A stretch of 64,000 nt of DNA from Mobula hypostoma (taxonomy: Eukaryota). Shown here in pieces: positions 5,517 to 62,060 of the stretch. The notes below the pieces were generated by a model, which was not told the origin of the DNA, ran no database searches, and saw only the letters and a list, made by a program, of their open reading frames with translations. Location: positions 103,046,001 through 103,110,000 of the forward strand of contig NC_086097.1 in NCBI RefSeq assembly GCF_963921235.1. The letters are read 5' to 3'. The translations under genes were made by a program, and so were the position numbers. How positions within the stretch are numbered: the stretch's first letter is position 1; the number at the start of each line of letters is the position of its first letter.

Positions 5517-6160
5517 CATCTCTATCTAAATGTGCAATTTATGGTAATTTATTATAAAGACTGTATACAACAGGATAGTCAATATAACATAGAAATACAG
5601 TAGTGTCAGCATGAACTAAGCAGTCTGATAGCCTGGTAGAAGAAGCTGTCTCGGAGCTGGTTGGTCCTGGCTTTCATACTGCGGTACCGTCTCTTGGATG
5701 GTAGCAGCTGGAACAGTTTGTGGTTGGGCTGACTCAGGTCCCCAGTGATCCTTCAGGTCCTTTTTACACATCTGTCCTTGTAAGTGTCCTGAATAGCGGG
5801 AAGATCACATCTACAGATGTGCTGGGCTGTCCGCACCACTCTCTGCAGAGTCCTGTGATTGAGGGAAGTTCTCAAACCAGGCAGTGATGCAGCCAGTCAG
5901 AATGCTCTCAATTTTCCCCCTATAGAAAGTTCTTAGGATTTGGGGGCCCATACTAAACTTTTTCAACCATCTGAGGTGAAAGAGACGCTGCTGTGCCTTT
6001 TTCACCACACAGCCGGTATGTACAGACCACGTGAGATTCTCAGTGATGTTTGTGCTGAGGAACTTAAAGCTGTTCACCCTCTCAACCGCAGATCCACTGA
6101 TGTCAGCCTGTCTCCATTCCTCAGTACTCCACAACCAGCTCCTTTGTTTTTGCAACATTG
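5517..6160 (-). mobile_element. Rex1/Babar-like LINE 3' fragment (tail continues at about 1900-1931)
   Basis: ORF 5811..6158: VERVNSFKFL...KKAQQRLFHLR...IESILTGCITAW. This element hosts the Gypsy insertion. Confidence 0.85.
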
Positions 6161-8723: not shown

Positions 8724-9088
8724 TGATGTAATATTAATTCAGACTGTTATATTTCATTAGGCTAGTTTTTGTGTTTGAATAATCTACTCAATTGTGACTT
8801 GCTGATAGCTTGCAACTGCAGTGGTTGCCACTCGATGTTCACTGACAGGCCTGATGAATTCTCCATCTCCGTTGGGAATCTTTGCCTCCTTCATGCACCA
8901 ATGATTGATTAGCTGGTGACTTAATGTAACAGGGCTCTGTACACAGTATAGGTGACATGTAAGTGCCCTTGGGCACCTAATTGGCTCCCAATTTTTTTGG
9001 CCTGGGAGGTGGCTTCATACTCGAGATTTCTCATCCTAAATCCAAATGACTTAGTCACCACTGATCCCAGGCATCTTAATATTCTGGA

Positions 9089-9306
9089 CACAGGCAAGAG
9101 AAAATCTGTGGATGCTGGAAATCCAAGCAACACACACAAAATGCTAGAGGAATTCATCAGGCCAGGCAGCATCTAAGGGGAAAAAGTACAGCTAACCAAT
9201 CAGAACGGACGTCCTACTGAACAGACTTGGCCCGAAGCAGCGACTATACTTTTTTCCATAAATGCTGCCTGGCCTTCTGAGTTCCTTCAGCATTTTATCC
9301 GTGTTG
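9089..9306. mobile_element. Fold-back Penelope-derived element with decayed hammerhead motif
   Basis: Inverted arms and 14-bp TSD CTTAATATTCTGGA (9075-9088 and 9307-9320). Confidence 0.8.
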
Positions 9307-9329
9307 CTTAATATTCTGGATGTGTTTAC

Positions 9330-16686: not shown

Positions 16687-17130
16687 GAATTAATCAATCT
16701 GATAGCCTGGTGGAAGAAGCTGTCTCGGAGCCTGTTGGTCCTGGCTTTTAATGCTGCAGTACTGTTTCCTGGATGGTAGCAGCTGGAACAGTTTGTGGTT
16801 GGGGTGACTCAGGTCTCCAGTGATCCTTCGGGCCCTTTTTACACAACTGTCTTTGTAAATGTCCTGAATATTGGTTAGTTCAGATCTACAGATGCGCTGA
16901 GCAGTCCACACCACTCTCTGCAAGAGTCCTGCGATTGAGAGAAGTACATTTCCCATACCAGACAGTGATGCAGCCAGTCAGGATGCTCTTAATTGTGCCC
17001 CTATAGAAAGTTCTTGGACTTTGGGGGCCCATACCAAACTTGTTCATCTGTCTGACGTGAAAGGGGCGCTGCTGTGCGTTTTTCACCACATAACCGGTAT
17101 GTACAGACGATGTGAGACCATTGGTGATGT
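16687..17130 (-). mobile_element. Rex1-like LINE fragment (tail at about 14530-14694)
   Basis: ORFs 16690..16956 and 16886..17200 are homologous to 5811..6158. Confidence 0.85.
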
Positions 17131-17442
17131 CTATGCCGAGAAGAATGAAATAATTGTTACTCCAGATCCGATGCAGCATGAAGAACACAATAAAAGACAC
17201 TATAAATATAAAAGCAATTCAATAAAACACAATGTACAAGTAGCTGTTATATACATAGACTAATTGTATCTACAGAGTGATGCCAGGTGGGTTAATGGGT
17301 GAAGGTGTTGATAAGCCCGGCGGCCTGGGAGAAGGAATTGGTTTTGAGTGTAGTGATCCTGGCCCGGATGCTGCGCAGCCTCTTCTCTCATGGGAGTGGG
17401 ACAAACAGTACATAAGCAGGGTGAGTGGGATCTTCCATAATA

Positions 17443-18791: not shown

Positions 18792-19410
18792 TTAGACTTT
18801 TCCACCATAAGAAACATCCCAAATATGGGAAAGTCTTTAGATACTGTAAACCCAAAGCAACACACACAAAATGCTGGAGGATCTCAGTAGACCAGGCAGC
18901 ATCTATGGAAAAGAGTAAACAATCGACATTTTGGGCAGAGACTCTTAATCAGGGCTCACTCCCTCAAATCCACTCTATCAAGGCCTTTTACCATCCGATT
19001 GGTTTCAATGAGGTCACCCCTCATTCTTCTGAATTCCAGTGAGTAGAGGCCCAGAGCCATCAAACGGTTCTCATATGATAAATCTTTCAATCCCAGAATC
19101 GTTTTCATGAACTTTTGAACCCTCTCCAATGTCAGCACATCCTTAGATAAGGAGCCCACAACTGCTCAATACTCCAAGTGAGGCCCCACCGGTGCTTGAA
19201 ATCAGAATGAAGTTTATTATCACTGGCATGTGTCGTGAAATTTGTTAACTTGGTAGCAGCAGTTCAATGCAATACATAATACAGAAGAAAAAACCAAAAT
19301 ATAATAATAATAAATAAATCAGTTACAGTATACATATATTGAATAGATTAAAAATTGTGCAAAAAACAGAAATAATATATATTTAAAAAGTGAGCTAGTG
19401 TCCAAGGTCC

Positions 19411-20161: not shown

Positions 20162-20649
20162 AGTGTCCAAAGTCCATTTAGGAATTGGATGGCAGAGGGG
20201 AAGAAGCTGTTCGTGAATCACTAACTGTGTGCCTTCAGGCTTCTGTACCTCCTACCTGATGGTAACGGTGAGAAAAGGGCATGCTGTGGGGGCTGGAGGC
20301 CCTTAATAATGGATGCTCCCTTTCTGAGACACTGCTGCTTGAAGATGTCTTGGGTAATTTGTAGACTAATACCTAAGATGGAGCCGACTAAATTTACAAT
20401 GCTCTGCAGCTTCTTTCAGTCCTGTGCAGTCGCCTGCCCTCTCCCATACCAGACAGTGATGCAATCTGTTAGAATGCTCTCCATGGTACATCTATAGAAG
20501 ATTTTGAGTGTATTTGCTGACATATCAAATCTCTTCAGACTCCTAATGAAGTATAGCTGCTGTCTTGCCTTCTTTATAACTTCATTGATATGTTGGGACC
20601 AGGTTAGATCCTCAGAGATCTTGACACCCAGGAACTTGAAACTTATAAC

Positions 20650-21150
20650 CTCAACATTACATCCTTGCTTTCCTATTCTAGTCCTCTCGAAATGAATGCT
20701 GATATTGCATTTTCCTTTCTCACCACCGATTCAACCTGCAAATTAACCTTCAGGGAATCCTGCACGAGGGCTCCCAAGACCCATTGCACATCAAATTTTT
20801 GAATTTTCTCTCCATTTAGGAAATGGTCTACGCTTTTATTTCTTCTACCAAAGTGCATGACCATACACTTCCCGACATAGTATTCCATCTGCCACTTTGC
20901 TCATTCTCCTAATCTGTCTAAGTCCTTCTGTAGCCTGTCTTTTACCGCATAACTACCTGCCCCTCCACCAATCTTTGTATTGTCTGCAAACTTTGCCCAA
21001 AGCTATCAATTCCGTAAACCAAATCATTGACATATAATGTAAAAAGAAGCGGTCCCAGCACAGACCTCAGCACCACTGGTCATTGGAAGTCAACCAGAAA
21101 AGGCTCTCTCTATTCCCAAATTTTGCCTCCTGCTGATCTGTCAGTGCTCT
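20650..21150 (-). mobile_element. CR1 RT fragment
   Basis: ORF 20673..20888: VGKCMVMHFGRRNK...LKVNLQVESVVRK. Confidence 0.8.
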
Positions 21151-23127
21151 ATCATTTAGAGATAATATAGGAATTGTATAGAGGATGCTGCCTGAATAAG
21201 AGGGCAATGTTGACCGAGCTAGGGTTTTGCTCGTTGAAGAGGAGGATGAGAGGTGACTTGATGAAGGCGCCAACTAAGAGGCAGAGATCGAATGGGCGCC
21301 TTTTTTCCCAGGGCAGAAATGGCTGATGGGGAGGGGGCATAATTTTAAGGTGATTGGAGGAAAGTGTGGGGAGATATCAGAAGTAATTTTTGTTTTAGTA
21401 TATGAAATTTGCCTTTGATATCTTCACCACCCTCCCATCCCCAGTCCTGCCAGAGGTTGTGGTAGAGGGCGATACATTGGGGACATTTAAGAAACTCTTT
21501 AGAAAGGCACTTGGATTATCGAAAAATGGAGGCCTATGTAGGAGGGAAAAGTTTGATTAATCTTAGAGTAGGTTAAAAGGTCAGCTGAACGTCATATGCT
21601 TGGGGGAGGGGCTGTACTGTGTGTTAAGTTCTATCTAATGATATGTGCATATACATCAACTGTGTATATTATAGTTTGATGTCATTTAGAAGAAATGGGG
21701 ATAAAACAACCTCAACCAAAATTGTTTGGTTTCTCATTCTAGTTTTCATGTCTTCTACTGCCTCTCCCCTCACTGAACTATACATTGTCTGGGTCACATT
21801 TAGGCTTAATGTTGTATGTTCTTGACTTTAATTAGTAACATTTCTTCATACAGAATGTAGAGGAGGGACATCCCAAGGCATACAATAGCTCAAGATATCA
21901 CTGTGGCTTAAATGTCATAACACCTATTATATTAAGTAGCATTGAGACTACCTTTGAAATAAATTAATACCTTTTTCCCCTCCGTGGGAGAGAAGACAAA
22001 TTTCTGTAAAACGTTTCGTGGACTGAGCAGCTCCATAGCCTTCCCAGTTAACTATAAAAATGCTGGTCAATTGATAAGATTGGTACATAAACTAGAGATA
22101 TTGAATGAGCTATTGCTTGAGCTATGTTTTAACACTAATCTTGGAATCCAAATATTTTAGATATAATTACTTTGATCCTGCAACATATGATTTAACATTT
22201 GGCTAGGATTAATTAGTTCAATTCAATTTCGTTAGTCAAGTTTGATTACAATCCATTTCTATTTATGGACTATTTTGCATGCAGTAAATTGATTTAAGAC
22301 AGACTAGACAATTATAATACAGTCATAAGAATATAATAAATGGGGGCAGGAATCACCAGTCACTTCCTGAAGCCTTCCTTTCGTGCATTAAAAAAAATCA
22401 AGGCTGATTCAACTTTATTTTCTTGCCATATTTCCACGTCCGTTGTTGTCTGTAAAATCCACAGGACTGAGAATTCCAAAGATTCATCACTAATTGAGTG
22501 AGGAAATTACTACTCATGTCAGTCCAAAACGAACTCCCAGCTCTAGAAACTTCAGCCTGCAGAAAGATTTGTCCTCTTGAGCCCTCTGAAGAATTTTGGA
22601 TGTTTCAATTAAGTCATCTATTCTTTAAACTCTAGATCCCAGTCAATCTCTTTGTAGGACATTTCAGAAATCAGTCTGGTCTCACCATGTCACTGGAGCG
22701 AGACCATTGTAGCAAAGCATCATTGATTCTTGCAATCCAGACTAACAGACCATTTTTCTGTTTAATTTTCTGTTTATTGAAGGTGGGAAGGGACTGATCT
22801 GTATCTTGGGGGTCTGCTGAAGCTTATATTGACAGATTTTTTTTGTGTTCCATGATAAATACGTTAATATCTGTCCTATTTAAATTATTAATTAACAAAA
22901 CATACCATCAGTATATAATTTCAGCATTTTTCCAATCCAGCAGTGTTTGTGTATATATCTACACCCGGACAACATTTATGAGATGCCTCTGGAATATGGT
23001 TCTTGATGGCTGCAATTGATTTTTGCCTGGATGAAGTTCTCGGTTCATGATTTGCGTTAGCAATTGAGATGCATCCTCTCTTGGCTCGTTATTGATGTCA
23101 TCTTGTAAACTTATAGGTGGTAACACA

Positions 23128-23355
23128 TTCATGAGGAAATCTGCAGATGCTGGAATTTCAAGCAACACACATAAAAGTTGCTGGTGAATGCAGCAGGCCA
23201 GGCAGCATCTCTAGGAAGAGGTACAGTCGATGTTTCGAGCCGAGACCCTTCGACCCTTCGTCCTGACGAATGGTTTCGGCCCGAAACGTCGACTGTACCT
23301 CTTCCTAGAGATGCTGCCTGGCCTGCTGCATTCACCAACAACTTTTGTGTGTGTT
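23128..23355. mobile_element. Fold-back Penelope-derived element with hammerhead motif
   Basis: About 95-bp near-perfect inverted arms and 12-bp TSD GGTGGTAACACA (23116-23127 and 23356-23367). CTGACGA...GAAACGTC core at 23263-23290. Confidence 0.88.
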
Positions 23356-24209
23356 GGTGGTAACACAATAATCAGTCTGCACCAATAAGTAGGATCAAAA
23401 CAGCGTTCGGGGTTCTGTGGCTCTGTGCTACTTTACTTTGCTGCTGTTAAGGTTGAATTCATCCTGAATCTGGTGATGGGACTATCAAACTGATGAATAC
23501 TTCCATCTGTTAACCCACCCAACCTCCCTTCACCACCACTGCATACACATCAGCCACTTTATGTACATACAATCAGTCTATGTATATAAGCTAATGTGTC
23601 TATACAGCCACACTCAAAGATTTACTTGTGCATTGTGGTTTATAGGATTGTTTTTACATTTGTATTTATTGTGTTCTTTATGCTTATTGTACTTTTTATA
23701 CTGCATTGGACCCAAAGTGTCAATCATTTTGTTCTTCTTTGCACTTTGTACTGAACAATGCCAATAAACAATCTTGAATTTAGTTACCTGCAGCAACATC
23801 CCTTTAGTTGTCATAGGAAGCTTGCTTTTCCTTCTTTTTGGTGCTCTATCTGATTAGTACGTGAAGCTGAAACAATATTGCAGCTCCGGTAATGTTCTTT
23901 AGTCAACATACATCGGGTTCTGAGCTGAATGTTAGTGAATCCTGGTGTTGGCATCTTTTTCTATGCCAAGAGACCAGTGTATGTGTCTGTCATAGAAACA
24001 AACATAGATGGGTGGAATATAGGTGGCTATTAAAATTTCTCAGGAGCTGGATTTTAACAGCCAGTACTGTTACATCCAGGCTTTCAAACAGAATTTCAGA
24101 GCTGCAGCAACCTGCTATAAATATAAATGTAGAAGAAATGCCCAGCTCACGGGAAACAATGCCACAAATGTGTAAATATGAAACACTGCATTGAAATGCA
24201 AAGGAAGAC

Positions 24210-28272: not shown

Positions 28273-30202
28273 ACACAAAATGCTGGAGGAACTCAACAGG
28301 CCAGGCAGCATCAAGGAAAAGAGTACAGTTAATGTTTCATGCCGAAACCCTTCGGCAGGACTGCAGAGAAAAGCTGAAGAGTAGATTTAAAAGATGTGTG
28401 GAGGGGAGAGCAAAACACAAGCTGATAGTTGAAATCTGGAGGTGGAAGGGTGAAGTAAAGATCTGGGAAGTTGATTGGCGAAAGAGACAGAAAGCCATGG
28501 AAGAAAGAAAAGTGGGGAGGAGAACCAAAGGGAGGCAATGGGTGGGCAAAGAAATAAGGTGAGAGAGGGAAAGGGGGAGGGGAGGCTAGGGGGCATTGTC
28601 AGAGCTTGATTTGGCATGATGTTTCCTCTTGGGATAGAATCTACAACTGGGGTAATAAAGAGGGGTACCACACAAAAAAAACCTAGAAGATCTCAGTAGG
28701 TCAGGTGGCATCCATGGAAATGAATATACACTCAATGTTTTAGTGTAAGACCCTTCATCAGGACTGGAAAGAAAAGAAGCCAGAATAAGAAGCTGAGGGG
28801 AGGGGAAGGTGATAGATGAAGTCAGGTGGGTGGGGGAGAGGGGATGATGTGGGAAGCTGGGTGGGGGGGGTAGTAGGTGGAAAGGTAAAGGGCTAAAGAA
28901 GGAGGAATTTGTTATGGGAGGAGACTGGACTATGGGAGAAAGGAGGAGGAGGTGATAGACAGGCAAGGTGAGGAGAAGAGGCAAGGGGGAGCTAGACTGG
29001 GGAATGGAAGAAGAGGGGAAAGGGAGGGGAGAAAATTATCGGAAGGAGAGGGATCAATGTGCATGTTATCAGACTGGAGGCTATCCAGATGCAATATGAG
29101 CTGTTGCTCCTGTGGTGGCCTCATTGTGGCAGTAGAGGAGACATAGGCTGACATGTCTGAATGGGAGTGGAATTTGGAATTAAAATGCTTGGCCACTGGG
29201 AAATCCTTTTTTCTGCAGTGGAGCAAAAGTACTCTGCAAAGCGGTCCCCAATCTACATTGGGTCTCACCAATGTAGAGGAGGCCGCATTGGGAACAGTAG
29301 AAGACCCTAACAGACATGTTGCCTCACTTGGAAGGAATATTTGGGGTCCTGAATGGAGGTGAATGGGTAGGTGTAGCATGTCTTCCCCCCCCTCCCAAGT
29401 GGAAGAAGTGCTACATCTGCCCATTCACCTCCTCCCTTACCTCCATTCAGAGCCCCAAACAGTCCACCCATGTGAGATAACTCTTCACCTGCAAAGCTGG
29501 TGGGGTTGTCCAGTGTATCCAGCGCTCCTGATGTGACCTCTTCTACGTTCGTGAGACCTGATGTAGATTGGGGGGGCCACTTTGTTGAGCACCTTCACTC
29601 CATCTGCAAAAAGCAGAATTTCCTATGGTTAACCGCTTTAATTCCAATCTGCACTCCCGTCCCAACAAGTCTGCTCCTGGCCTCCTCTACTGCCACGATG
29701 AGGCCACTCTCGACTGGGAGAAGCAACACTTGGAAGCCTTCAACTTGTTGGCACGATTATTGATTTCTCTAACTTCCAGTAATTTCTTCCCTCCCCCTTC
29801 CCTTTTTAAAAAATTTTCCACTCTGTCTCCCCCCATACCTCTTACTTCACCTCACCTGCTTATCACTAATCCCTTGTGCCCCTTCTTCATCCTTTTCTCC
29901 CATGTCCACTTCACTCTCCTATCAGATTCTTCCTTCAGCCTTTAGGTTTTCCACTATCGCCTCCCAGGATCTCTCCCCCACCCACCTGGCTTCACCTATT
30001 ACCTTCTAGCTTGTACTCCTTTCTGCACACACCCCCATCATCTTATTCTACTTTCTTCTTCCTTTCCTTTCCAGTCCTGCTGAAGTGTCTAGATCCAAAA
30101 TATTGACTGTTTATTCCTTTCCATAGATGCTGCCTGACCTGTTGATTTCTCCAGAAATTTGTGTGTTACTCTGGATTTTGAGCATCTGCAGAATTGCTTG
30201 TG
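28273..30202. mobile_element. Penelope-like element array: two tandem minus-strand pseudo-LTRs plus an inverted plus-strand copy
   Basis: Degenerate GIY-YIG endonuclease remnants on both strands (FVEHLHSICKK, FPVAKHFNSKFHSHSDMS, LLYCHDEATL), inversion point near 29390. Three decayed hammerhead motifs. Confidence 0.8.
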
Positions 30203-32706: not shown

Positions 32707-32904
32707 GCTCCTATCATTTTGGATCTCCCCCTCCAACTTTCAAATCCCTTACTCACTCTTCCTTCAGTTAGTCCTGATGAAGGGTCTCGGCCTGAAACGT
32801 TGACTGCACCTCTTCCTACAGATGCTGCCTGGCCTGCTGCGTTCACCAGCAACTTTTATGTGTGTTGCTTGAATTTCCAGCATCTGCAGAATTCCTGTTG
32901 TTTG
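32707..32904 (+). mobile_element. Penelope-derived pseudo-LTR fragment (young)
   Basis: Same sequence family as the arms at 23128-23355 and 47979-48176. Confidence 0.8.
32769..32806 (+). ncRNA. Minimal type I hammerhead ribozyme motif
   Basis: TAGTC-CTGATGA-AGGGTCTCGGCCT-GAAA-CG-TT-GACTG: stem I, CUGANGA box, stem II, GAAA box, 1-bp stem III and NUH site. Activity untested. Confidence 0.75.
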
Positions 32905-39889: not shown

Positions 39890-41470
39890 CAGGTGTCCCC
39901 CACTTTTCGAACGTTCGCTTTACGAAACCTCACTGTTACGAAAGACCTACATTAGTACCCTGTTTTCGCTTTCAGAAGGTGTTTTCACTGTTACGGAAAA
40001 AAATCAGCGTGCGATAAAAGGCAGCGCGCGCCCTGAGCAGCCGCTGTCCCCCAGATTCGGAACGGCATTGCTTAAACACGTGCCCGTGAGCAGCCGTTGG
40101 CAAGATGAGTTCTGAGGTATTGGAAAAGCCTGAAAGAGCTCGTAAGGGTGTTACACTTAGCGTAAAACTAGATGTAATTAAGCGTTTCGATTGTGGTGAA
40201 CGAAGTAAGGACTAAGTGAGTTTGGCTTGTGGAAACTGACGAACATGATGTTGAAGAGGTTTTGGCATCCCATGACCAAGAACTGATAGATGAAGAGCTG
40301 ATGCAATTGGAAGAGGAAAGGATAACAATTGAAACTGAATGCAGTAGTGAACGGACCAAAAGTGAAGTCATCCAGGAACTGAATGTGAAGCAACTGCGTG
40401 AGATTTTCGCTGCAATGATAAAGTACGACTTTAATTTTGAAAGGGTACGTAGGTTTAGGGGATATTTGCAGAATGGTTTGAGTCCTTACAAAGAACTGTA
40501 TGATAGAAAAATGCGCGAGGCTCAGCAGTCAAGCAAGCCTTCCGCATCAGCCACAGCAGATGACGAACCTCGACCTTCGACATCGAGGTGGGCAGTCATA
40601 GGAGAAGATGAGCTGCCTGTTCTAATGGAAACAGACAATGAGATGACACCCCAGTGTCCCACCACCCCGCGATTCGCGGAGAATGCAGCGGTAGCCAGGA
40701 GGCACACAGCACATCTTTAAGAAAAAAGCCGAAATAAACATGCAAATTAATTAGGTACCGCCCTGCACGTAATTGTCAGCTCAACTCGGAGACGACGCAA
40801 TTGGAAATCGGCACTGATCTGGGCCGACAATTACGTGCAGGGCAGTACCTAATTAATTAGCATGTTTATTTTGGCTTTTTCTTAAAGATGTGCTGGATGC
40901 CTCCCAGCTACCACTGCACCCCTGCGCGCTTTGTGGTTCGGTATCTGTTGACGGCCTGGAGGATGGGGGCCACTGCACCACCCAACCTGCGACGACTCAG
41001 CCTAACACACCATCATCTGTGTGCTCGGCGCTGAAGCAATTGCGGTAAGTGATACTACACTGTACATACATTATTTTTACTTTATATAGGCTGTGTATTT
41101 TTATGTGTTACTTGGTATGATTTGGCAGCTTCATAGCTTAAAGGTTACTGGAGAGCGCTTGCGTGAGATTTTCTGCCGACGGCACTTGCGCGAGATTTTC
41201 ACTACGGAGAACAGTGCAGTAATGATTGTGGAAATGTATTTCTACTTTATATAGGCTGTGTGTTTCTCATATCATTCCTGCTTTTACTATATGTTACTGT
41301 TATTTTAGGTTTTATGTGTTATTTGGCATGATTTGGTAGGTTATTTTTGGGTCTGCGAACGCTTACAAATTTTTCCCATATAAATGGTAATTGCTTCTTC
41401 GCTTTATGACATTTCGGGTTACGAACTGTTTCATAGGAACGCTCTACCTTCGGATGGTGGGGGAAACCTG
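39890..41470 (+). mobile_element. Internally deleted Tigger/pogo DNA transposon
   Basis: TA|CAGGTGTCCCCCAC...GTGGGGGAAACCTG|TA. N-terminal RKGVTLSVKLDVIKRFDCGE (CENP-B/psq HTH, about 40105-40215) joined to C-terminal DVEEVLASHDQELIDEELMQLEEE. No DDD domain. Confidence 0.9.
40684..40918. repeat. Long imperfect palindrome inside the Tigger element
   Basis: About 100-bp arms (CAGCACATCTTTAAGAAAAA... versus ...TTTTTCTTAAAGATGTGCTG) around a spacer of about 35 bp. Confidence 0.92.
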
Positions 41471-42589: not shown

Positions 42590-43100
42590 CAGAATCAGAT
42601 TCAGGTTTAATATCTCCAGCATATGTCATAAAATCTGTTAACTTAGTGGTCGCAGTACAGTACAATACATGATAATATAGGAAAACAATAAGTAAATCAA
42701 TTACAGCAAATATATATGTACTGTATATTAATTAGTTAAATTAAAAATAGTGTAAAATGAGAAATTATATTTTTTTTAAAACGTGAGGAGGTGTTCATGG
42801 GTTCAATGTCCATTTAGGAATCAGATGGCAGAAGGGAAGAAGCTGTTTCAGATTGGCCGAGTTGTGTGCCTTCAGGATTCTGTACCTCCTTCCCGTTGGC
42901 AACAATAAGCATGTCCTGGGTGATGGGAGTCCTTAATAATGGATGCTGCCTTTCTGAGGCACCGTTCCTTGAAGATGTCTTGGGTAAAATGGAGGCTAGT
43001 AACCAAGATGGAGCAGACTAATTTTACAACTTTCTGTAGCTTTCAATCCTGTGCAATAGCCCCCCCCCCCACCATACCAGACAGTGATGCAGCCTGTCAG
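42590..43100 (-). mobile_element. Rex1-like LINE 3' fragment
   Basis: LTGCITVWYG motif, family 3'UTR and (AATCAG)n tail. Confidence 0.8.
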
Positions 43101-43239
43101 AAATGAAAACTGGGATGAGTGTAGATTACCACTGAAAATACTGAGCCACCTGAATTTCATTGGCGTATTTGCTATGTGGAAAAATAAGGAATTATTCAAG
43201 GAATTGTCTAAAAATCTTTATATACAGACCATGTCCTGA

Positions 43240-47535: not shown

Positions 47536-47978
47536 GGAATGAACTGAAATTGGTTAGAGAGCTTAAGGTAAAAGAACCCTGAGGGGTAAGTGATCAAAGT
47601 ATAAGAGAATTCACCCTGAAATTTGAGACTGAGAAGCTAAAGTCAGCTGTATCGGTATTACAGTGGAGTAAAAGGAATTAGAGACATGAGAGAGGAGTTG
47701 GCCAGAATTGATTTGAAAAGACCACTGGTAGGGATGATGGCAGAGCAGAAACGGATGGAATTTCTGGAAGCAACTCAAAAGGCGCAGGGTATATACTGTA
47801 CATCCCAAAGTGTAAGAAATATTCTAAAGGCAAGTTGACACAACTATGGCTAACAAGTCCAACATAAAAATCAAAGAGAGGATATATAATGAAGCAAAAG
47901 TTAGTGGGAAGTTAGGGGATTGGGAAGCTTTTAAAAACTTAACAGAAGGCACTAAAAAGTCATTAAGAAGGTAAAGGT

Positions 47979-48176
47979 AAACAACAGGAATTCTGCAGAT
48001 GTTGGAAATTCAAGCAACACACATCAAAGTTGCTGGTGAACGCAGCAGGCCAGGCAGCATCTCTAGGAAGAGGTGCAGTCAACGTAACGCAGCAGGCCAG
48101 GCAGCATCTCTAGGTAGTCCTGATGAAGGGTCTCGGTCTGAAACGTCGACTGCTGCGTTCACCAGCAATTTTGATG
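47979..48176. mobile_element. Fold-back Penelope-derived element nested in CR1
   Basis: 14-bp TSD AAGAAGGTAAAGGT (47965-47978 and 48177-48190), inverted arms and an internal duplication of about 30 bp. Confidence 0.88.
48115..48152 (+). ncRNA. Minimal type I hammerhead ribozyme motif
   Basis: TAGTC-CTGATGA-AGGGTCTCGGTCT-GAAA-CG-TC-GACTG with a GUC cleavage triplet. Activity untested. Confidence 0.75.
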
Positions 48177-50979
48177 AAGAAGGTAAAGGTGGTAAGCGGA
48201 AATAAGCTAGCCAATAATATTAAAGAGGATACCAAAAGTTTTTTGAGATGCATAGTTTAAAAGAGAGGCAAGAGTGGATATGGGACTGCTGGGAAATGAT
48301 ACTGGACAGGTAGTAATGGGGGACAAAGAAATGGCAGATGAACTGTATAAGAATTTTGCATCAGTCTTCAATGGAAGACATTAGCAGTGTGGTGGAAGTT
48401 CCAGATGTCAAGGATCATGAAGTGTGAAGTTTACCATCACTAGAGGGAAGGTTGTTGGGAAACTGAAAGGTCTGAAGGTAGATAAGTCACTTGGACCAAA
48501 TGGTGTACACACCAGAGTTCTGAAAGAGGTGGCTGAAGACATCGTTTCTTGAAAGATCATTAATAATCTCTCCATGCAAGATTCTGGAATACTGAAAAAT
48601 TGCAAATATCACTTCACTTTTCAAGAAGAGAGAGAGGCAGATGAAAGGAAATTATAGGCCAGTTAGTCTGACCTCAGTGGTTGGGAAGATGTTGGAGTTG
48701 ATTGGTAAGAATGTGGTTTCGGGGTACTTGGAGGCACATGATAAAATAGGCCATAGTCAGAATGGTTTCCTCGAGAAAATCTTGCCTCACAAATCTGTTG
48801 GAATTCTTTGAGAAATAACAAGCAGGACAGACAAAGGAGAATTGTTTGATGTTAATTACTTGGATTTTCAGAAGGCTTTTGACAAGGTGGCACACAGGAG
48901 GCTGCTAAACAAGCTACCAGCCCATGATATTAGAACCATAGAATATTATATTACAGGAAAGGTTCTAGCAAGGATAAAACAGTGGCTGATTGGCAGGAGA
49001 TGAAGAGTGGGAATAAAGGGAGTCTTTTCTGGTTGGCTGCCAGTGACTAGTGGTGTTTCACAGGGTACTGTGTTGGGACTGATTCTTTTTAAGTTATATG
49101 TCAATGATTTGTATGATGGAATTGATGGCTTTGTTGTAAAGTTTGCAGACAATACGAAGATGGGTGGAGGAGCAGGTAGTTATGAGGAAATAGGGAGATT
49201 ACAGAAGGATTTAAACAGATTAGGAGAATAGGCAGAGAAATGGCAGAAGTAGTACAGTGTTGAGATGTGTATGGTCATGCGCTTTGGCAGAAGAAATGAA
49301 AGGGAGAGAAAATACAAAAACCTGAGATGCAAAGGGACTGGGAGTCCTTGTACAGGTTGAGTCTGTGTTGAGGAAAGCAAATGTGATGTTAGCATTCATT
49401 TCAAGAGGACTAGAATATAAAAGTGAGGATGTAATATTGAGACTTTATAAAGCACTGGAGAGACCTCACTTGGAGTATTGTGAACTGTTTTGGGCCCCTT
49501 AGAAAGAATGTGTTGAAACTAGAGAGGGTTGAAAGGAAGTTCAGGAGAATGATTCCAGGATTGAATGGCTTATCATATGAAGTGCGTTTGATGTTCTGGA
49601 CTTGTATTCACTGGAATTTAGAAGAATGAGGGATAACCTAATTGAAACCTCTCAAATGGTGAAAGGCCTTGATAGAGAGGATGTTTCCTATGGTGGGAAG
49701 GCCCAAGAGCAGAGGACACAGTCTCAGAATAGAGGGGGAGTCCTTTTAGAACAGCGATGGGGAGGAATTTCTTTAGCCAGAGTGTGATAAATCTGTGGAA
49801 TTCATTGCTCCAGGCAGCTGTGGAGGCCTTTACCTATATTTAAGACAGAGGTTGATAGACTCTTGATTGGTAAGGGCATGATGGGATAAGGGGGGAAGGC
49901 AGGAGATTGGGACTGAGAGGAAAATTGGATCAACCATGATGAAATAGTGGAGCAGACACAATGGGCCAAATGGCCTAATTCTGCTCCTATATTTTATGGT
50001 CACCTTTAAAACCAGTGGAACACTTAATTCCTCCACTTCTCTGATGGTAGTAGGTTCTAGAACTCCCCACGCTGCCCCCCCCAATTCTCCAACTGTACCA
50101 TCTTCCTCCATTGTGAATAGTAAAAAGTTCTTGTGTCCTTTGGTTCCACACATAGATTAAATACCTTAGATGGGTTTACAAAGTTGTGACTCTCCATAAT
50201 CTTGCCTGCCTGCCGGTGTTCTATTGTATTATTTTCCCTTCTGATTTTTTGTTTTTCTTGTTTTCAATCCTCTAAACTTGCCATTCACTGCAGTTTTATC
50301 CAACTCTTGATATCCCTTGATGCCATTGGTTCCTTGGATTTAATGCCCTTCCACTCTTATGAGAACACATTAGTATTTTTCAAATTTGACTACTTTCTTT
50401 AGTAGCATATGGGCACCTCAAGTCTGTGTCCATTTTTATCAGGTGCAGTTTTATAATATTGAAATCTTCTTTCCTTCAATTGGGGACTATCATCACTCCA
50501 GTATCCTCCTTCAATAGTTATGACCACTCTACCTGAAATGTTCTTTGCTGATGCTCTCTTGGCCTCAAAATATTCCACTGGATGCACCTCATCAGCTCCT
50601 AGGGATTTATTTAAAAGCTGTTCACAGTTAATATTTGAGAAATTGAAATCCTCTACTACTATTGCTCTTATTGTTTTTACACCTCTCTTGTGATTTGTCT
50701 GTGCATCCACACCTCTATCTCCTGAAACACATCCCTCAGAAAAGTGATCAAACTCTTTGTTTAGAAGTTCCGCCTATATGGCTTTATTTGAAGATCTTTC
50801 AATGATGTACTCATTTCTTAATGCAGTAATGGATGCTTTGATATTGTAATACCATCTCTTCTTTTACATCACCACCAACCCCCACCCAGCCGTCATTTTA
50901 TCTGAAGATTCTATGCCTTGGAATGTTGAGTTGCCAGTTCTACTTTTCTCAACATAAATATGTGATAGTAACACTCTCA

Positions 50980-54040: not shown

Positions 54041-54212
54041 ATAGAAAAAAAATGAAGATCTCAATCTATATTGAAAGAGTGGATTCATCAGCAATGGAGT
54101 GAACGTCAGAGGGATGTCATTTCATAGGTACAAATATTCCAAAATCCGAAACACTTCTGGCCTCAAGCATTTCAGATAAGGGGTGCTCAACCTGTATTTT
54201 TCAGAAAGATTC
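54041..54212 (-). repeat. Inverted duplicate of 55292-55463
   Basis: 172 bp, with one mismatch by manual alignment. Confidence 0.95.
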
Positions 54213-54229
54213 ACTAGTATTTCCAGCAT

Positions 54230-55130
54230 TTGGTTTAACATAGTCAAGTTTATTGTCACATGTGGAGTACATGTATGCCTAGATGCAATGTAAAACATAT
54301 GACTCACACAACATATAAAGTAATATTACCACAAATAATAAAATGTATCCCAGAAGATCGACATTTAGCATAAGTTGCACTTACGACACAATTTTAAAAG
54401 TAAATAGTATAAAGCTACTGGCACTTCATACATGAGACCTGGATGGTGGCAGGGAGTTCAGTAGTCTCAGATCCTGGAGAAGAAGCTGTTTCCCATCCTA
54501 ACAGTTCTTGTCCTAATGCTATGGTACCTTTTGCTGATGGTAGGGGGTCAAAGAGGTAGTGTCACGGATGGAAGGGATCCTTGACACTGCTAAGTGCCCT
54601 GTGTACGCAGCGCGCCTGGTAAATATTTCCAATGGGTGGATGAAAGAAAGACCCCAGTGATTCTCTCAGCAGTCCTCACAACCCTTTGTAGGGTCTTGTG
54701 GTCAGATGCCTTGCAGTTCCCATATCACATGATGGTGCAGCCGGTTAGGACACTGTCAAAGGAACTCCTGTCAAAATTGGTGAGAATGGTGGGGGAAGAG
54801 CCTCGTTCATGTCAGTCTCCACAGACACTGCTGTCTTTCTTGATAAAGAGGTATTAGTAAGGGACCAGATGAGATCGTCCATTATGTGCACTCCCAGAAA
54901 CTTGGTGCTCCTAGCTCTCTCCACAGAGGAGCCACTAACGTGCAGTGAGGTGTGGTCAGCCTGCACCTTCCTAAGGTCTGCAGTCATCTCTTTGGTCTTG
55001 TCCGTGTTGGGACACAAGTTGTTATGCTCGCATTAATCTACAAGCACCTCTAACTCCTCTCTGTACTCTGTCTCGTTATCATTGTTGATGAGGCCAACCA
55101 CTGTTATGTTAGCAGTGAACTTGATTTGGA
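54230..55130 (-). mobile_element. Rex1-like LINE fragment
   Basis: ORF 54745..55017: NTDKTKEMTADLRK...VERARSTKFLGVHI. Confidence 0.8.
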
Positions 55131-55309
55131 TCCATTCAGTCCCATTTACAATAGGCTATTACACAGTCTTTGATCTGGCTATTCTTTTCGGTAGTGGAAT
55201 AAAAGGTTTTGTGGATATTAACTTTTGAAATTAACCAAACTTTTGATGTTGAAACACAGGCCTGTATAATAACTCAGTGAACTGTGGTTGGGAATCTTTT
55301 TGAAAAATA

Positions 55310-56272
55310 CAGGTTGAGCACCCCTTATCTGAAATGCTTGAGGCCAGAAGTGTTTCGGATTTTGGAATATTTGTACCTATGAAATGACATCCCTCTGACG
55401 TTCACTCCATTGCTGATGAATCCACTCTTTCAATATAGATTGAGATCTTCATTTTTTTTCTATTTTTCATTAACTTCTGTTCATTACTTTCAGCATAGAA
55501 ATTTGAATTGTTTGCCTTTCTGTTACTTCAGGTTGTTCCAACGCCATACTCCTCCGTCAGATACCTCACACTTACACCGCTGTCAAGTTTTTCCAATAGC
55601 TTGACTTTGTGTTTATAGATAACCATAAATGCTTACTCTTTTTAAAAAAAATTTCACAATTACCCATAGAGGTAATTACTGGCCTTTCTGACATATTGCA
55701 CAGAGCAGAGAGCAAGTGGTCACATGGGTAATCTCGCTGAGTTATTTATTTGAGACACAGCACAGAATCGACCTTTTGGGCCGTGCTGCCCAGCGGTCGC
55801 CTCGATTTACAACCATAAGACATAGGAGCAGAATTAGGCCTTTCAGCACATTGAGTCTGCTCCGCCATTCCAGCCTAACCCTTGCCTAAACACTGGACAA
55901 TCTACAATACCCAATTAACCTACCAGCCAGTATGTCTTTGGACTGTGGTAGGACACTGGAGCACCTGGAGGAAACCCATGAGGTCACTGGGAGAACATAC
56001 AAACTCCTTACAAGGTAGTGTCAGGATGGTAATGCATGAAGGTATGTCTATGATGATTACTGAGAGCAAACTGGCACCAACAGGGTAGCACTCTGGGCAT
56101 ATGAGGTCACTTCTCAAAACTGTCTGTGGTGCGCAGATACCTGTGCTTTGCCTGGGAACCTTCCCAGCACCTTGTAGAATTTTCGATTTTTGGCATCATG
56201 TCAGTGCTCAAAAAAAAAACAACAAATTGGATTTTGGACATTTTTGTGTTTTCGCATAAGGGTTATCTCTTG
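55310..56272. mobile_element. Tigger4/Zombi-like non-autonomous DNA transposon with nested SINE pieces (about 55740-56015)
   Basis: TA|CAGGTTGAGCACCCCTTATCTGAAATGCTTG left end and decayed right end (TGGCATCATGTCAGTGCTCAAAAA...ATAAGGG). Confidence 0.7.
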
Positions 56273-60629: not shown

Positions 60630-62060
60630 GCTTGCTTCTCACAGGTTCACCACCTTTGTCCAATGGGTACTGCATGTAAATACAAGCTCTTGACATAAAA
60701 GGGAATTACTGTGCAAATACATTAAGAAAGAAATAATAAATGAGCAATAAATATCAAGAACATGAGAAAATGAGAAAATCCTTGAAAGTGAGTACATTGA
60801 TTGGGAATATTTCAATGATGGGACAAGAGAAGTTGAGTGAAGTTATCCCCTTTGGTTCAAGAGGCTGATGGTTGAAGGATAGTAACTGTTTCTGTACTTG
60901 GTGATGTGAGTCCCACCTTCCTGATGGGAACAGTGAAAAGAGAACATGTCCTGGGTGGTGGGGGCCTCTAATGATGGATGCTGCTTTCCTGCAACAGTGT
61001 TTCATGTAGCTGTGCTCAGTAGTGGGGAGAGCCTTACCCATGATAGACTGGGCTGTATCCACTACTTTTTGTAGGATTTTCCACTCAATGGCAATGATGT
61101 TTTCATACCAGGCTGTGATGCAGTCAGCCAGTGTACTCTACACTACACATCTATAATAGTTCGTCAGAATTTTAGATGTCATGGCAAATCTCCATAAACT
61201 CCGAAGAAAAGCTGTGCTTTCTTGATAATTGCATATGTACTGGGCCTAGGACAGGTCCTTTGAAATAATAACACCGAGGAATTTTAAGTTACTGACTCTC
61301 TGCACCTCTGATTCTCAGCGAACTGGCTCATGGACCTCTGGTTTCCTTCTCCTGAAGTCAATACTCAGCTCCTTGGTCTTGCTGACATTGAGTAAGAGGT
61401 TGTTGTTATGGTACCACTCAGTCAGATTTTCAGTCTCCCTCCTATATGCTTATTCATCGCCATCTTTGATTTGGCTTACGACGATGGTGTTGTCGGCAAA
61501 TTTGAATGTGGTATTGGAGCTGTGCTTAGCCACACAATCATAAGTATAAAACGAGTAGAGCAGGGGGTTAAGTGCACAGCCCCGTGGTGCACCTGTGCTG
61601 ATGGAGATCATTGAGGAGATGTAGTTGCCAATCCAACTGACTGGGGTCTACAAGTGAGGAAATCAAGGGTTCAATTGCACAAAGAGGTATTGAGGCCAAG
61701 GTATTGAGCTTATTGATTAGTTTTGAGGGGATGTTGATATTGATTGCTGAGCTGTAATCAATAAAGATCAAACTTATGTATGCACCCTTGCTGTCCAGAT
61801 GTTCCAGAGTTGAACAGAGAGCCAATTAGATGGCATCTGCTGTGTACCCGTTGCTCTGTTAAGCAAATTGGAACAATCTAAATCTTTTCTCAGGCAGGTG
61901 TTGATATGTTTCATCACCAGCCCCTCAAAGCATTTAATCACTGAGGACACAAGTGCAATTGGGCGATTGTCATTGAGGCAGATCAGCACGCTCTTCTTGG
62001 GCATTGGTATAATTGAGCCTGCTTGGAGCAGGTGGGTACCTCAGACTGCTGAAGCGAATG
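60630..62060 (-). mobile_element. Rex1-like LINE (RT to 3'UTR)
   Basis: LNDNRPIALVS, FIDYSSA and HPGHVLFSLFPSGR motifs. Confidence 0.85.

Follow-up and report, generated by a model that had tools for sequence, protein, structure and literature searches.

The window, that is, the whole 64,000-nt stretch of Mobula hypostoma DNA that was analysed, contained three head-to-head insertions at 9089-9306, 23128-23355 and 47979-48176. The initial annotation had given exactly these coordinates, and the exact TSDs of 12–14 bp that it described were found at all three (14, 12 and 14 bp, respectively). Each of the three comprised a minus arm with a tail and a plus arm without one. The arms are assigned to a Neptune-type Penelope-like element (PLE), of which they form the terminal repeat (pLTR). 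Positions in the repeat are counted relative to a 28-base arm motif, whose initial base (window 23302) is 0. On this scale, the predicted hammerhead cut falls at -11, stem I has its 5' strand beginning near -43, tail-less copies end at about +55 and tailed copies at about +91, and the ATG of the ORF lies about 35 nt beyond the tail. The features were as follows:

9075..9320, no strand: older-subfamily fold-back 9089-9306 with its 14 bp TSDs (9075-9088 and 9307-9320); plus arm starting at -42, hammerhead decayed
18831..18960, minus strand: older solo pLTR with tail, also terminating at the hammerhead 5' edge
23116..23127, plus strand: left TSD of 23128-23355, 12 bp
23128..23252, minus strand: inverted pLTR arm including the tail, terminating within the hammerhead at -35
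23128..23163, minus strand: PLE tail, 36 nt, confined to the minus arm
23253..23259, no strand: junction insert of 7 nt, a slipped repeat of the neighbouring arm end
23260..23355, plus strand: direct tail-less pLTR arm, beginning at -42, the modal 5' end
23260..23295, plus strand: minimal type-I hammerhead motif, damaged; core at 23263-23269, GAAA at 23283-23286, cleavage predicted after 23290
23356..23367, plus strand: right TSD of 23128-23355, 12 bp
28273..28600, minus strand: separate older copy, 5'-truncated and tail-less; right limit approximate
28669..30202, no strand: long head-to-head older-subfamily insertion with decayed GIY-YIG on both arms; limits set by eye
32740..32903, plus strand: young pLTR copy that has the tail and an intact hammerhead motif but lacks an inverted partner; 5' limit further upstream
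47965..48190, no strand: young fold-back 47979-48176 with its 14 bp TSDs (47965-47978 and 48177-48190); intact hammerhead motif at 48115

The arms of the insertion at 23128-23355 showed 91% complementarity across 97 nt, and structure prediction gave a folding z of -20.6; if transcribed, this copy would form one long hairpin. The outer end of its tail probably marks the distal RT start site, as the tail has been described as an interval bounded by two RT starts (PMC11167929). The features used to recognize its hammerhead were taken from PMC4209133, and a minimal-hammerhead descriptor was built from them. In the window, the descriptor passed only at 48115 and in the solo copy at 32769; over the window and the collected loci it gave 200 matches, and there were none in 20 shuffled windows. 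In the 23128 copy, stem I was reduced to 3 bp and stem II had a mismatch. The Rfam search returned no hammerhead match and nothing at the gathering level; its matches were generic hairpins, with sub-threshold miRNA-model matches to the fold-back hairpins. The fold-back at 9089-9306 was 72–82% identical to the young copy at 32740-32903, which placed it in an older subfamily, and the one at 47979-48176 was internally rearranged, with some 30 nt copied a second time at the junction and a loss of about 30 nt from the plus arm. Judged by their sequences, the three fold-backs do not belong to one subfamily. Sequence shared with a GIY-YIG element at 28273-30202, which the initial annotation had pointed out, was present (71–77% identity, with decayed GIY-YIG coding at a tblastn E of 6e-27), but by eye this interval held two insertions, not one. 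The insertion at 28669-30202 has the fold-back architecture in a longer form.

The 28-base motif had 52,185 exact matches in the 3.48 Gb genome searched. Long copies ran upstream into an ORF encoding RT, then a CX4CXXC linker and then GIY-YIG. The proposed Penelope origin and retroposition were borne out. The parent tandem unit was 3,516 bp, and intact RT plus GIY-YIG ORFs were present in the genome. At two loci (L302:1288-4416 and L304:1236-4364, minus), tandem units that were 97% identical held intact 1043-codon frames, which suggests recent activity of the family. In both, RT and GIY-YIG occurred in a single ORF (RVT_1 at E 3e-5 to 6e-5, GIY-YIG at E 1e-3; neither reached the Pfam cut-off), and the parent protein contained DKG and YIDD motifs as well as CCHH-type cysteines. 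The partial-tandem pLTR, optional tail and inverted 5' copy of such elements were represented here by the tandem unit, the bimodal 3' ends and the inverted partners. A CX2-5CxxC linker before the endonuclease marks the Neptune clade, and Nematis has such a linker too (PMC8557442). The parent is therefore classified as a Neptune-type PLE by its linker rather than by an RT tree. Its closest named homolog was an uncharacterised bamboo-shark protein with 72% identity. The family itself may well have been catalogued already in repeat collections.

To describe the arms, the first 100 motif matches listed were taken with their flanks, all within the initial 5.4 Mb of contig C1, which gave 102 arms from about 93 insertions. 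Arm ends were placed by anchored extension, superseding local alignments that had over-extended several arms. The 3' ends were bimodal, and 44 of the 102 arms were tailed. An adjacent inverted piece was found for 52 arms; among these were 33 distinct insertions whose partner reached the pLTR 3' end (34 rows, with L095 entered twice; 10 rows with solely internal inverted pieces were excluded). All 33 paired a tailed arm with a tail-less one, whereas independent ends would give such pairs in about half of the insertions. The ORF-less two-arm form made up 19 of the 93 sampled insertions, about a fifth. TSDs were 10–20 bp long, 36 of 50 falling at 12–14 bp in a count that took exact matches of at least 10 bp only and entered some insertions twice. 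One apparent tail/tail pair among 58 (L027) was traced to an alignment extending into its TSD, and TSD calls of 8–9 bp at long range were discarded as chance.

The two arms of an insertion were also alike. Short arms were partnered by short arms in 19 of 33 insertions (Fisher p 2e-4 on the 34 rows). At three subfamily sites, alleles agreed between arms in 43/50, 47/51 and 46/50 pairs, against shuffled means of 0.50–0.63, in a set that included the 30 best matches to the window copy; at two CpG-decay sites, agreement was not above that of shuffled pairs. Where both arms crossed a jump within the element, the jump junction was identical in both (5/5 loci, 4 distinct junctions). Discordant pairs at non-CpG sites (4/51 and 4/50) indicated that some insertions may draw on two RNAs.

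Each fold-back is an independent head-to-head pLTR insertion, and we consider it likely that reverse transcription was primed from both ends of a staggered cut, on one short RNA of the element. In this model, the endonuclease would make nicks in the two target strands with an offset of about 13 nt; of the resulting 3' ends, one would prime at a distal start (the tail end, +84 to +95) and the other at a proximal start (+36 to +65). Both cDNAs would be extended to the 5' terminus of a 200–450 nt RNA spanning the pLTR-ORF junction, mostly at -42/-43, and host end-joining would then trim and fuse the two cDNA ends via microhomology or short templated inserts. Priming of both nicks gives the order TSD, antisense arm, joint, sense arm, TSD, and ribozyme cleavage would be unnecessary. 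An RT jump to the far RNA end would instead produce direct mini-tandems. The anole Poseidon PLE is alike in that, in vitro, both strands were nicked and extended, two internal RT starts bounded the tail and the hammerhead was dispensable; however, it belongs to another clade, its starts lie 111–118 nt within the ORF rather than upstream of the ATG as here, and its start sites had no strand bias in vitro (PMC11167929). Two seemingly solo tail-less copies (L076 and L067) had a 10–15 nt inverted scrap of tail at the 5' junction, and given these scraps two-ended priming may be more frequent than counted.

The 5' ends of the arms were concentrated at one place. They fell in -40..-49 in 21 of the 80 arms reaching -40 (0.026 per nt), compared with 12 of the 92 arms at risk in -30..-39, 4 of 59 in -50..-59 and 2 of 99 in -10..-19; further upstream, the rate dropped to about 0.001–0.003 per nt, out to 1.8 kb. 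Genome-wide, there were 5,687 exact breaks at -43 vs. 959 at -47, the former count including point variants or small deletions (about 15 of the 100 listed) and -42 ends with a chance next base. Partner-less copies of both 3' types also stopped at this hot spot. A random distribution of inversion points relative to the hammerhead region, which would have told against the initial annotation, is contradicted by these counts. Its placement of the hammerhead at or near the inversion point needs a correction: the inversion was tied to the motif, but at its 5' edge, ~30 nt from the predicted cut. In the same way, its alternative of a recurrent product of fold-back priming at the ribozyme agreed with recurrent, non-random ends but not with priming at the cut, since the ends peaked ~30 nt upstream. 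The 5' ends also formed a second, weaker cluster around -400 to -550, in the end of the endonuclease region, where -400..-599 contained 17 arms (~0.003 per nt).

Self-priming, in which one cDNA, or an antisense RNA as proposed for rotifer Penelopes, snaps back at the palindrome in the pLTR 5' part, copies itself and halts before the tail, is how head-to-head palindromic junctions have been read in print (PMC3846280, Discussion). An imperfect predicted hairpin is centred on -41..-46, with -43 in its loop, and self-priming would account for shared alleles and shared jump junctions. However, it demands that the second arm be a subset of the first, and always the same one. In the 33 insertions, the tailed arm reached further in 13, the tail-less arm in 15 and neither in 5, and the difference was often hundreds of nt; the 15 longer tail-less arms count against fold-back priming as well. 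The halting of partner-less copies at the same site, the direct jumps that resume there and the existence of discordant arms also argue against self-priming, and we regard it as unlikely. The tail/tail-less pairing and the same-template evidence reported here were not found in the available text on Neptune-type PLEs (PMC3846280, PMC8557442), the former of which proposes antisense self-priming.

We read -43 as a template end rather than a DNA palindrome effect, because partner-less copies stop there, direct jumps resume at -40..-44 and older subfamilies break there. The last, with different upstream sequence, did so in about 14 of 28 copies by eye (9 of 37 rows were left out as young-type or another family). 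Among copies continuing into the ORF, just 1 of 31 terminated in -40..-49, vs. the 21 of 80 in the arm sample (p 0.007). Position -43 is therefore not where the main full-length template begins, and the model needs a separate short RNA class, which counts against it. The site coincides with the base of hammerhead stem I, adjoins a splice-acceptor-like motif and fits an initiator consensus. An initiator-type start of short, early-terminated transcripts is the favoured cause of the RNA 5' end at -43, and exonuclease trimming to the stem I base is a close second. An untemplated G is a trace of the cap; by eye, none was seen in 13 partner-less copies with a clear TSD. In Drosophila Penelope, the promoter is internal (PMC2377424) and the intron terminates at hammerhead helix I (PMC4209133). 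RNA-seq of anole Poseidon was enriched at the pLTR-ORF junction (PMC11167929). A spliced template was considered because the sequence immediately 5' of the hot spot contains a branch-point-like and polypyrimidine-AG motif; it was rejected since the junctions had no common upstream exon and partner-less copies directly abutted the TSD, and other transcripts might still be spliced.

Ninety of the 686 copies bearing sequence just past the tail were inspected. Forty-eight proceeded into the ORF, and many of them extended into the upstream tandem unit. The remaining 42 stopped 36–297 nt past the motif, and 36 of these jumped to upstream element sequence in direct orientation, six of them resuming at -40..-44. 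In 11 of 20 direct-jump copies, both unit starts were ≤10 nt apart; inverted arms in such copies also ended at the hot spot, and trimers repeated the jump junction. The jump copies are read as products of short linear RNAs, each with its own 5' and 3' ends, that were copied twice and in some cases end to end. Identical jump junctions would likewise be expected from a circular RNA or from a genomic mini-element serving as template; a circular template accounts for the repeated junctions, but not for the stops at a common 5' position. Direct mini-tandems of 200–450 nt (pLTR, tail and ORF start) were seen at L151, L167/L168, L256, L259, L275, L293 and L305.

Mini-tandems matched the layout of non-LTR retrozymes, and some trimers carried identical junctions. 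The suggestion of a retrozyme-like product thus did not hold for the fold-backs, but fitted their rarer sister product. More tentatively, and with slightly less than even confidence, we propose that PLE insertion is obligatory two-ended priming by one RNP from two fixed starts on the same sense RNA, and that end-to-end jumps then give birth to animal retrozymes. If this is true, inverted pLTRs and the one-sided tail need no antisense self-priming, and jumps on short pLTR RNAs would create hammerhead-bearing tandems in a single insertion, which would be the origin of retrozymes.

A further explanation is that the fold-backs form a self-propagating, non-autonomous family, retrozyme- or SINE-like and mobilised in trans, as the initial annotation had suggested with its non-autonomous ribozyme-bearing derivative. 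Thousands of copies of similar size exist, solo copies can be re-mobilised, and complex structures are common to some pairs of loci. However, the junction cores were all different in the 39 of 58 short pairs that could be anchored on both sides, two pairs differing merely by point changes, and the window junction (23128-23355) had one match in the 3.48 Gb. No short-specific alleles were found, as short and long arms had similar frequencies (p 0.23–0.42, a comparison of low power). The transcript of such a family would be a ~95-bp hairpin that buries the ribozyme, and the fold-backs, being head-to-head with ≤1 motif per strand, lacked the tandem structure of retrozymes. We therefore consider this family very improbable: the fold-backs are by-products of PLE insertion, independent single events and no new mobile family. 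Their junctions had microhomology or short templated inserts. Such junctions resemble those of polymerase-theta end joining.

Locus L072 (C1, ~2.96 Mb) held a 98% copy of the hammerhead-less solo insertion at L034 (C1, ~0.17 Mb) together with 300 nt of its upstream flank; fused to this piece was a second pLTR, which had a different allele set. By its structure, L072 records the re-mobilisation of a dead copy that captured flanking sequence and involved an RNA-to-RNA jump. The locus pairs L160/L162 and L169/L170 each had a common complex jump or deletion structure; they are possibly small non-autonomous lineages or segmental duplicates.

It is more doubtful still that hammerhead cleavage sets the template 5' end, with priming or joining at the cut. 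By eye, 9–10 of 50 listed short-gap fold-backs were perfect palindromes of the kind that two cDNAs stopping at the cut would form, and 1 of the 102 arms ended at -11. However, exact 17-mer pairs placed head to head, counted genome-wide in three gap bins only, numbered 356 at 6–35 nt, 3,147 at 66–95 nt and 525 at 126–155 nt; the perfect-palindrome class, part of the near-cut bin, was under a tenth of the 5'-edge class. Arms retained ~30 nt upstream of the cut. In addition, the predicted cut lies within a 6-bp palindrome, which yields the same product through microhomology, so the minor perfect-palindrome class may reflect cleavage or merely this palindrome. A MITE of a DNA transposon, suggested by the size and inverted arms, has practically no remaining probability, since the ends were unequal with a tail at only one, the long TSDs varied, the centres were unique, and the arms were contiguous with the RT/GIY-YIG ORF and formed a continuum to kb-long arms; the view that the insertions look like MITEs without being DNA transposons with fixed TIRs and TSDs was confirmed.

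In L1 twin priming, both target ends reportedly prime on one RNA to give an inversion with a TSD, as proposed here; its second primer is said to be internal, with variable sites and parts that hardly overlap. The fold-back starts, in contrast, lay within ~35 nt of each other, and the arms overlapped almost entirely.

EN+ Neptune-type PLEs (PMC3846280, PMC8557442) are alike in having RT with a C-terminal GIY-YIG, a zinc-finger linker, partial tandems, an inverted 5'-truncated copy, a 30–40 bp tail at one end, a TSD and a minimal hammerhead in the pLTR. The abundant ORF-less two-arm form and the sharp end at -42/-43 differ from those described. The minimal hammerheads of metazoan PLEs (PMC4209133) have the same motif, with opposite-strand pairs 100–700 bp apart and many singles from truncated PLEs; that paper, in its available text, gives no junction analysis and proposes cleavage and circles, whereas the ends here avoid the cut. 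Non-LTR retrozymes are likewise pLTR-derived, non-coding and hammerhead-bearing, and the mini-tandems fit their size and layout (bioRxiv 10.64898/2026.07.22.740005). Retrozymes are head-to-tail tandems, which the same source derives from local amplification, whereas the fold-backs are head-to-head single events and the mini-tandems seemingly arose within one insertion.

Inverted pLTRs, one-sided tails and TSDs have been described before (PMC3846280, PMC8557442, PMC8969392). Nothing was found on abundant ORF-less fold-backs, strict tail pairing or PLE twin priming in the literature search, which had subscription papers and supplements outside its scope. The architecture is thus already known, and the regularities in tail pairing, shared template and end position were not found in the literature searched. 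How the tandem and inverted ends of PLEs form is stated to be unresolved (PMC8557442, PMC11167929), and the accessible text of the anole study offers no model for inverted insertions. Because young copies number in the tens of thousands here and intact ORFs exist, the question of PLE ends is open to counting and biochemistry in this genome. Tail pairing, the shared template and the distance of the ends from the cut speak for two-ended priming rather than for self-priming as published, and the same regularities suggest a direct route from PLE to retrozyme. The fold-backs, thousands of which exist in the genome, would document, in natural insertions, a step of transposition for which an explanation is still lacking. 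Their hairpins are liable to be mis-called as MITEs or microRNA precursors.

Other repeats were present in the window. A short palindrome at 40723-40880 had 73-nt arms (86%) and a 12-nt spacer; it is a different repeat, unrelated to the pLTR. At 54041-55463, 172-nt arms that were 99% complementary flanked 1,079 nt including a LINE-like fragment. Dispersed LINE/SINE-like repeats with many copies were found, among others, at 5612-6059, 16687-17140, 20245-20805, 42875-43102 and 60910-61622.
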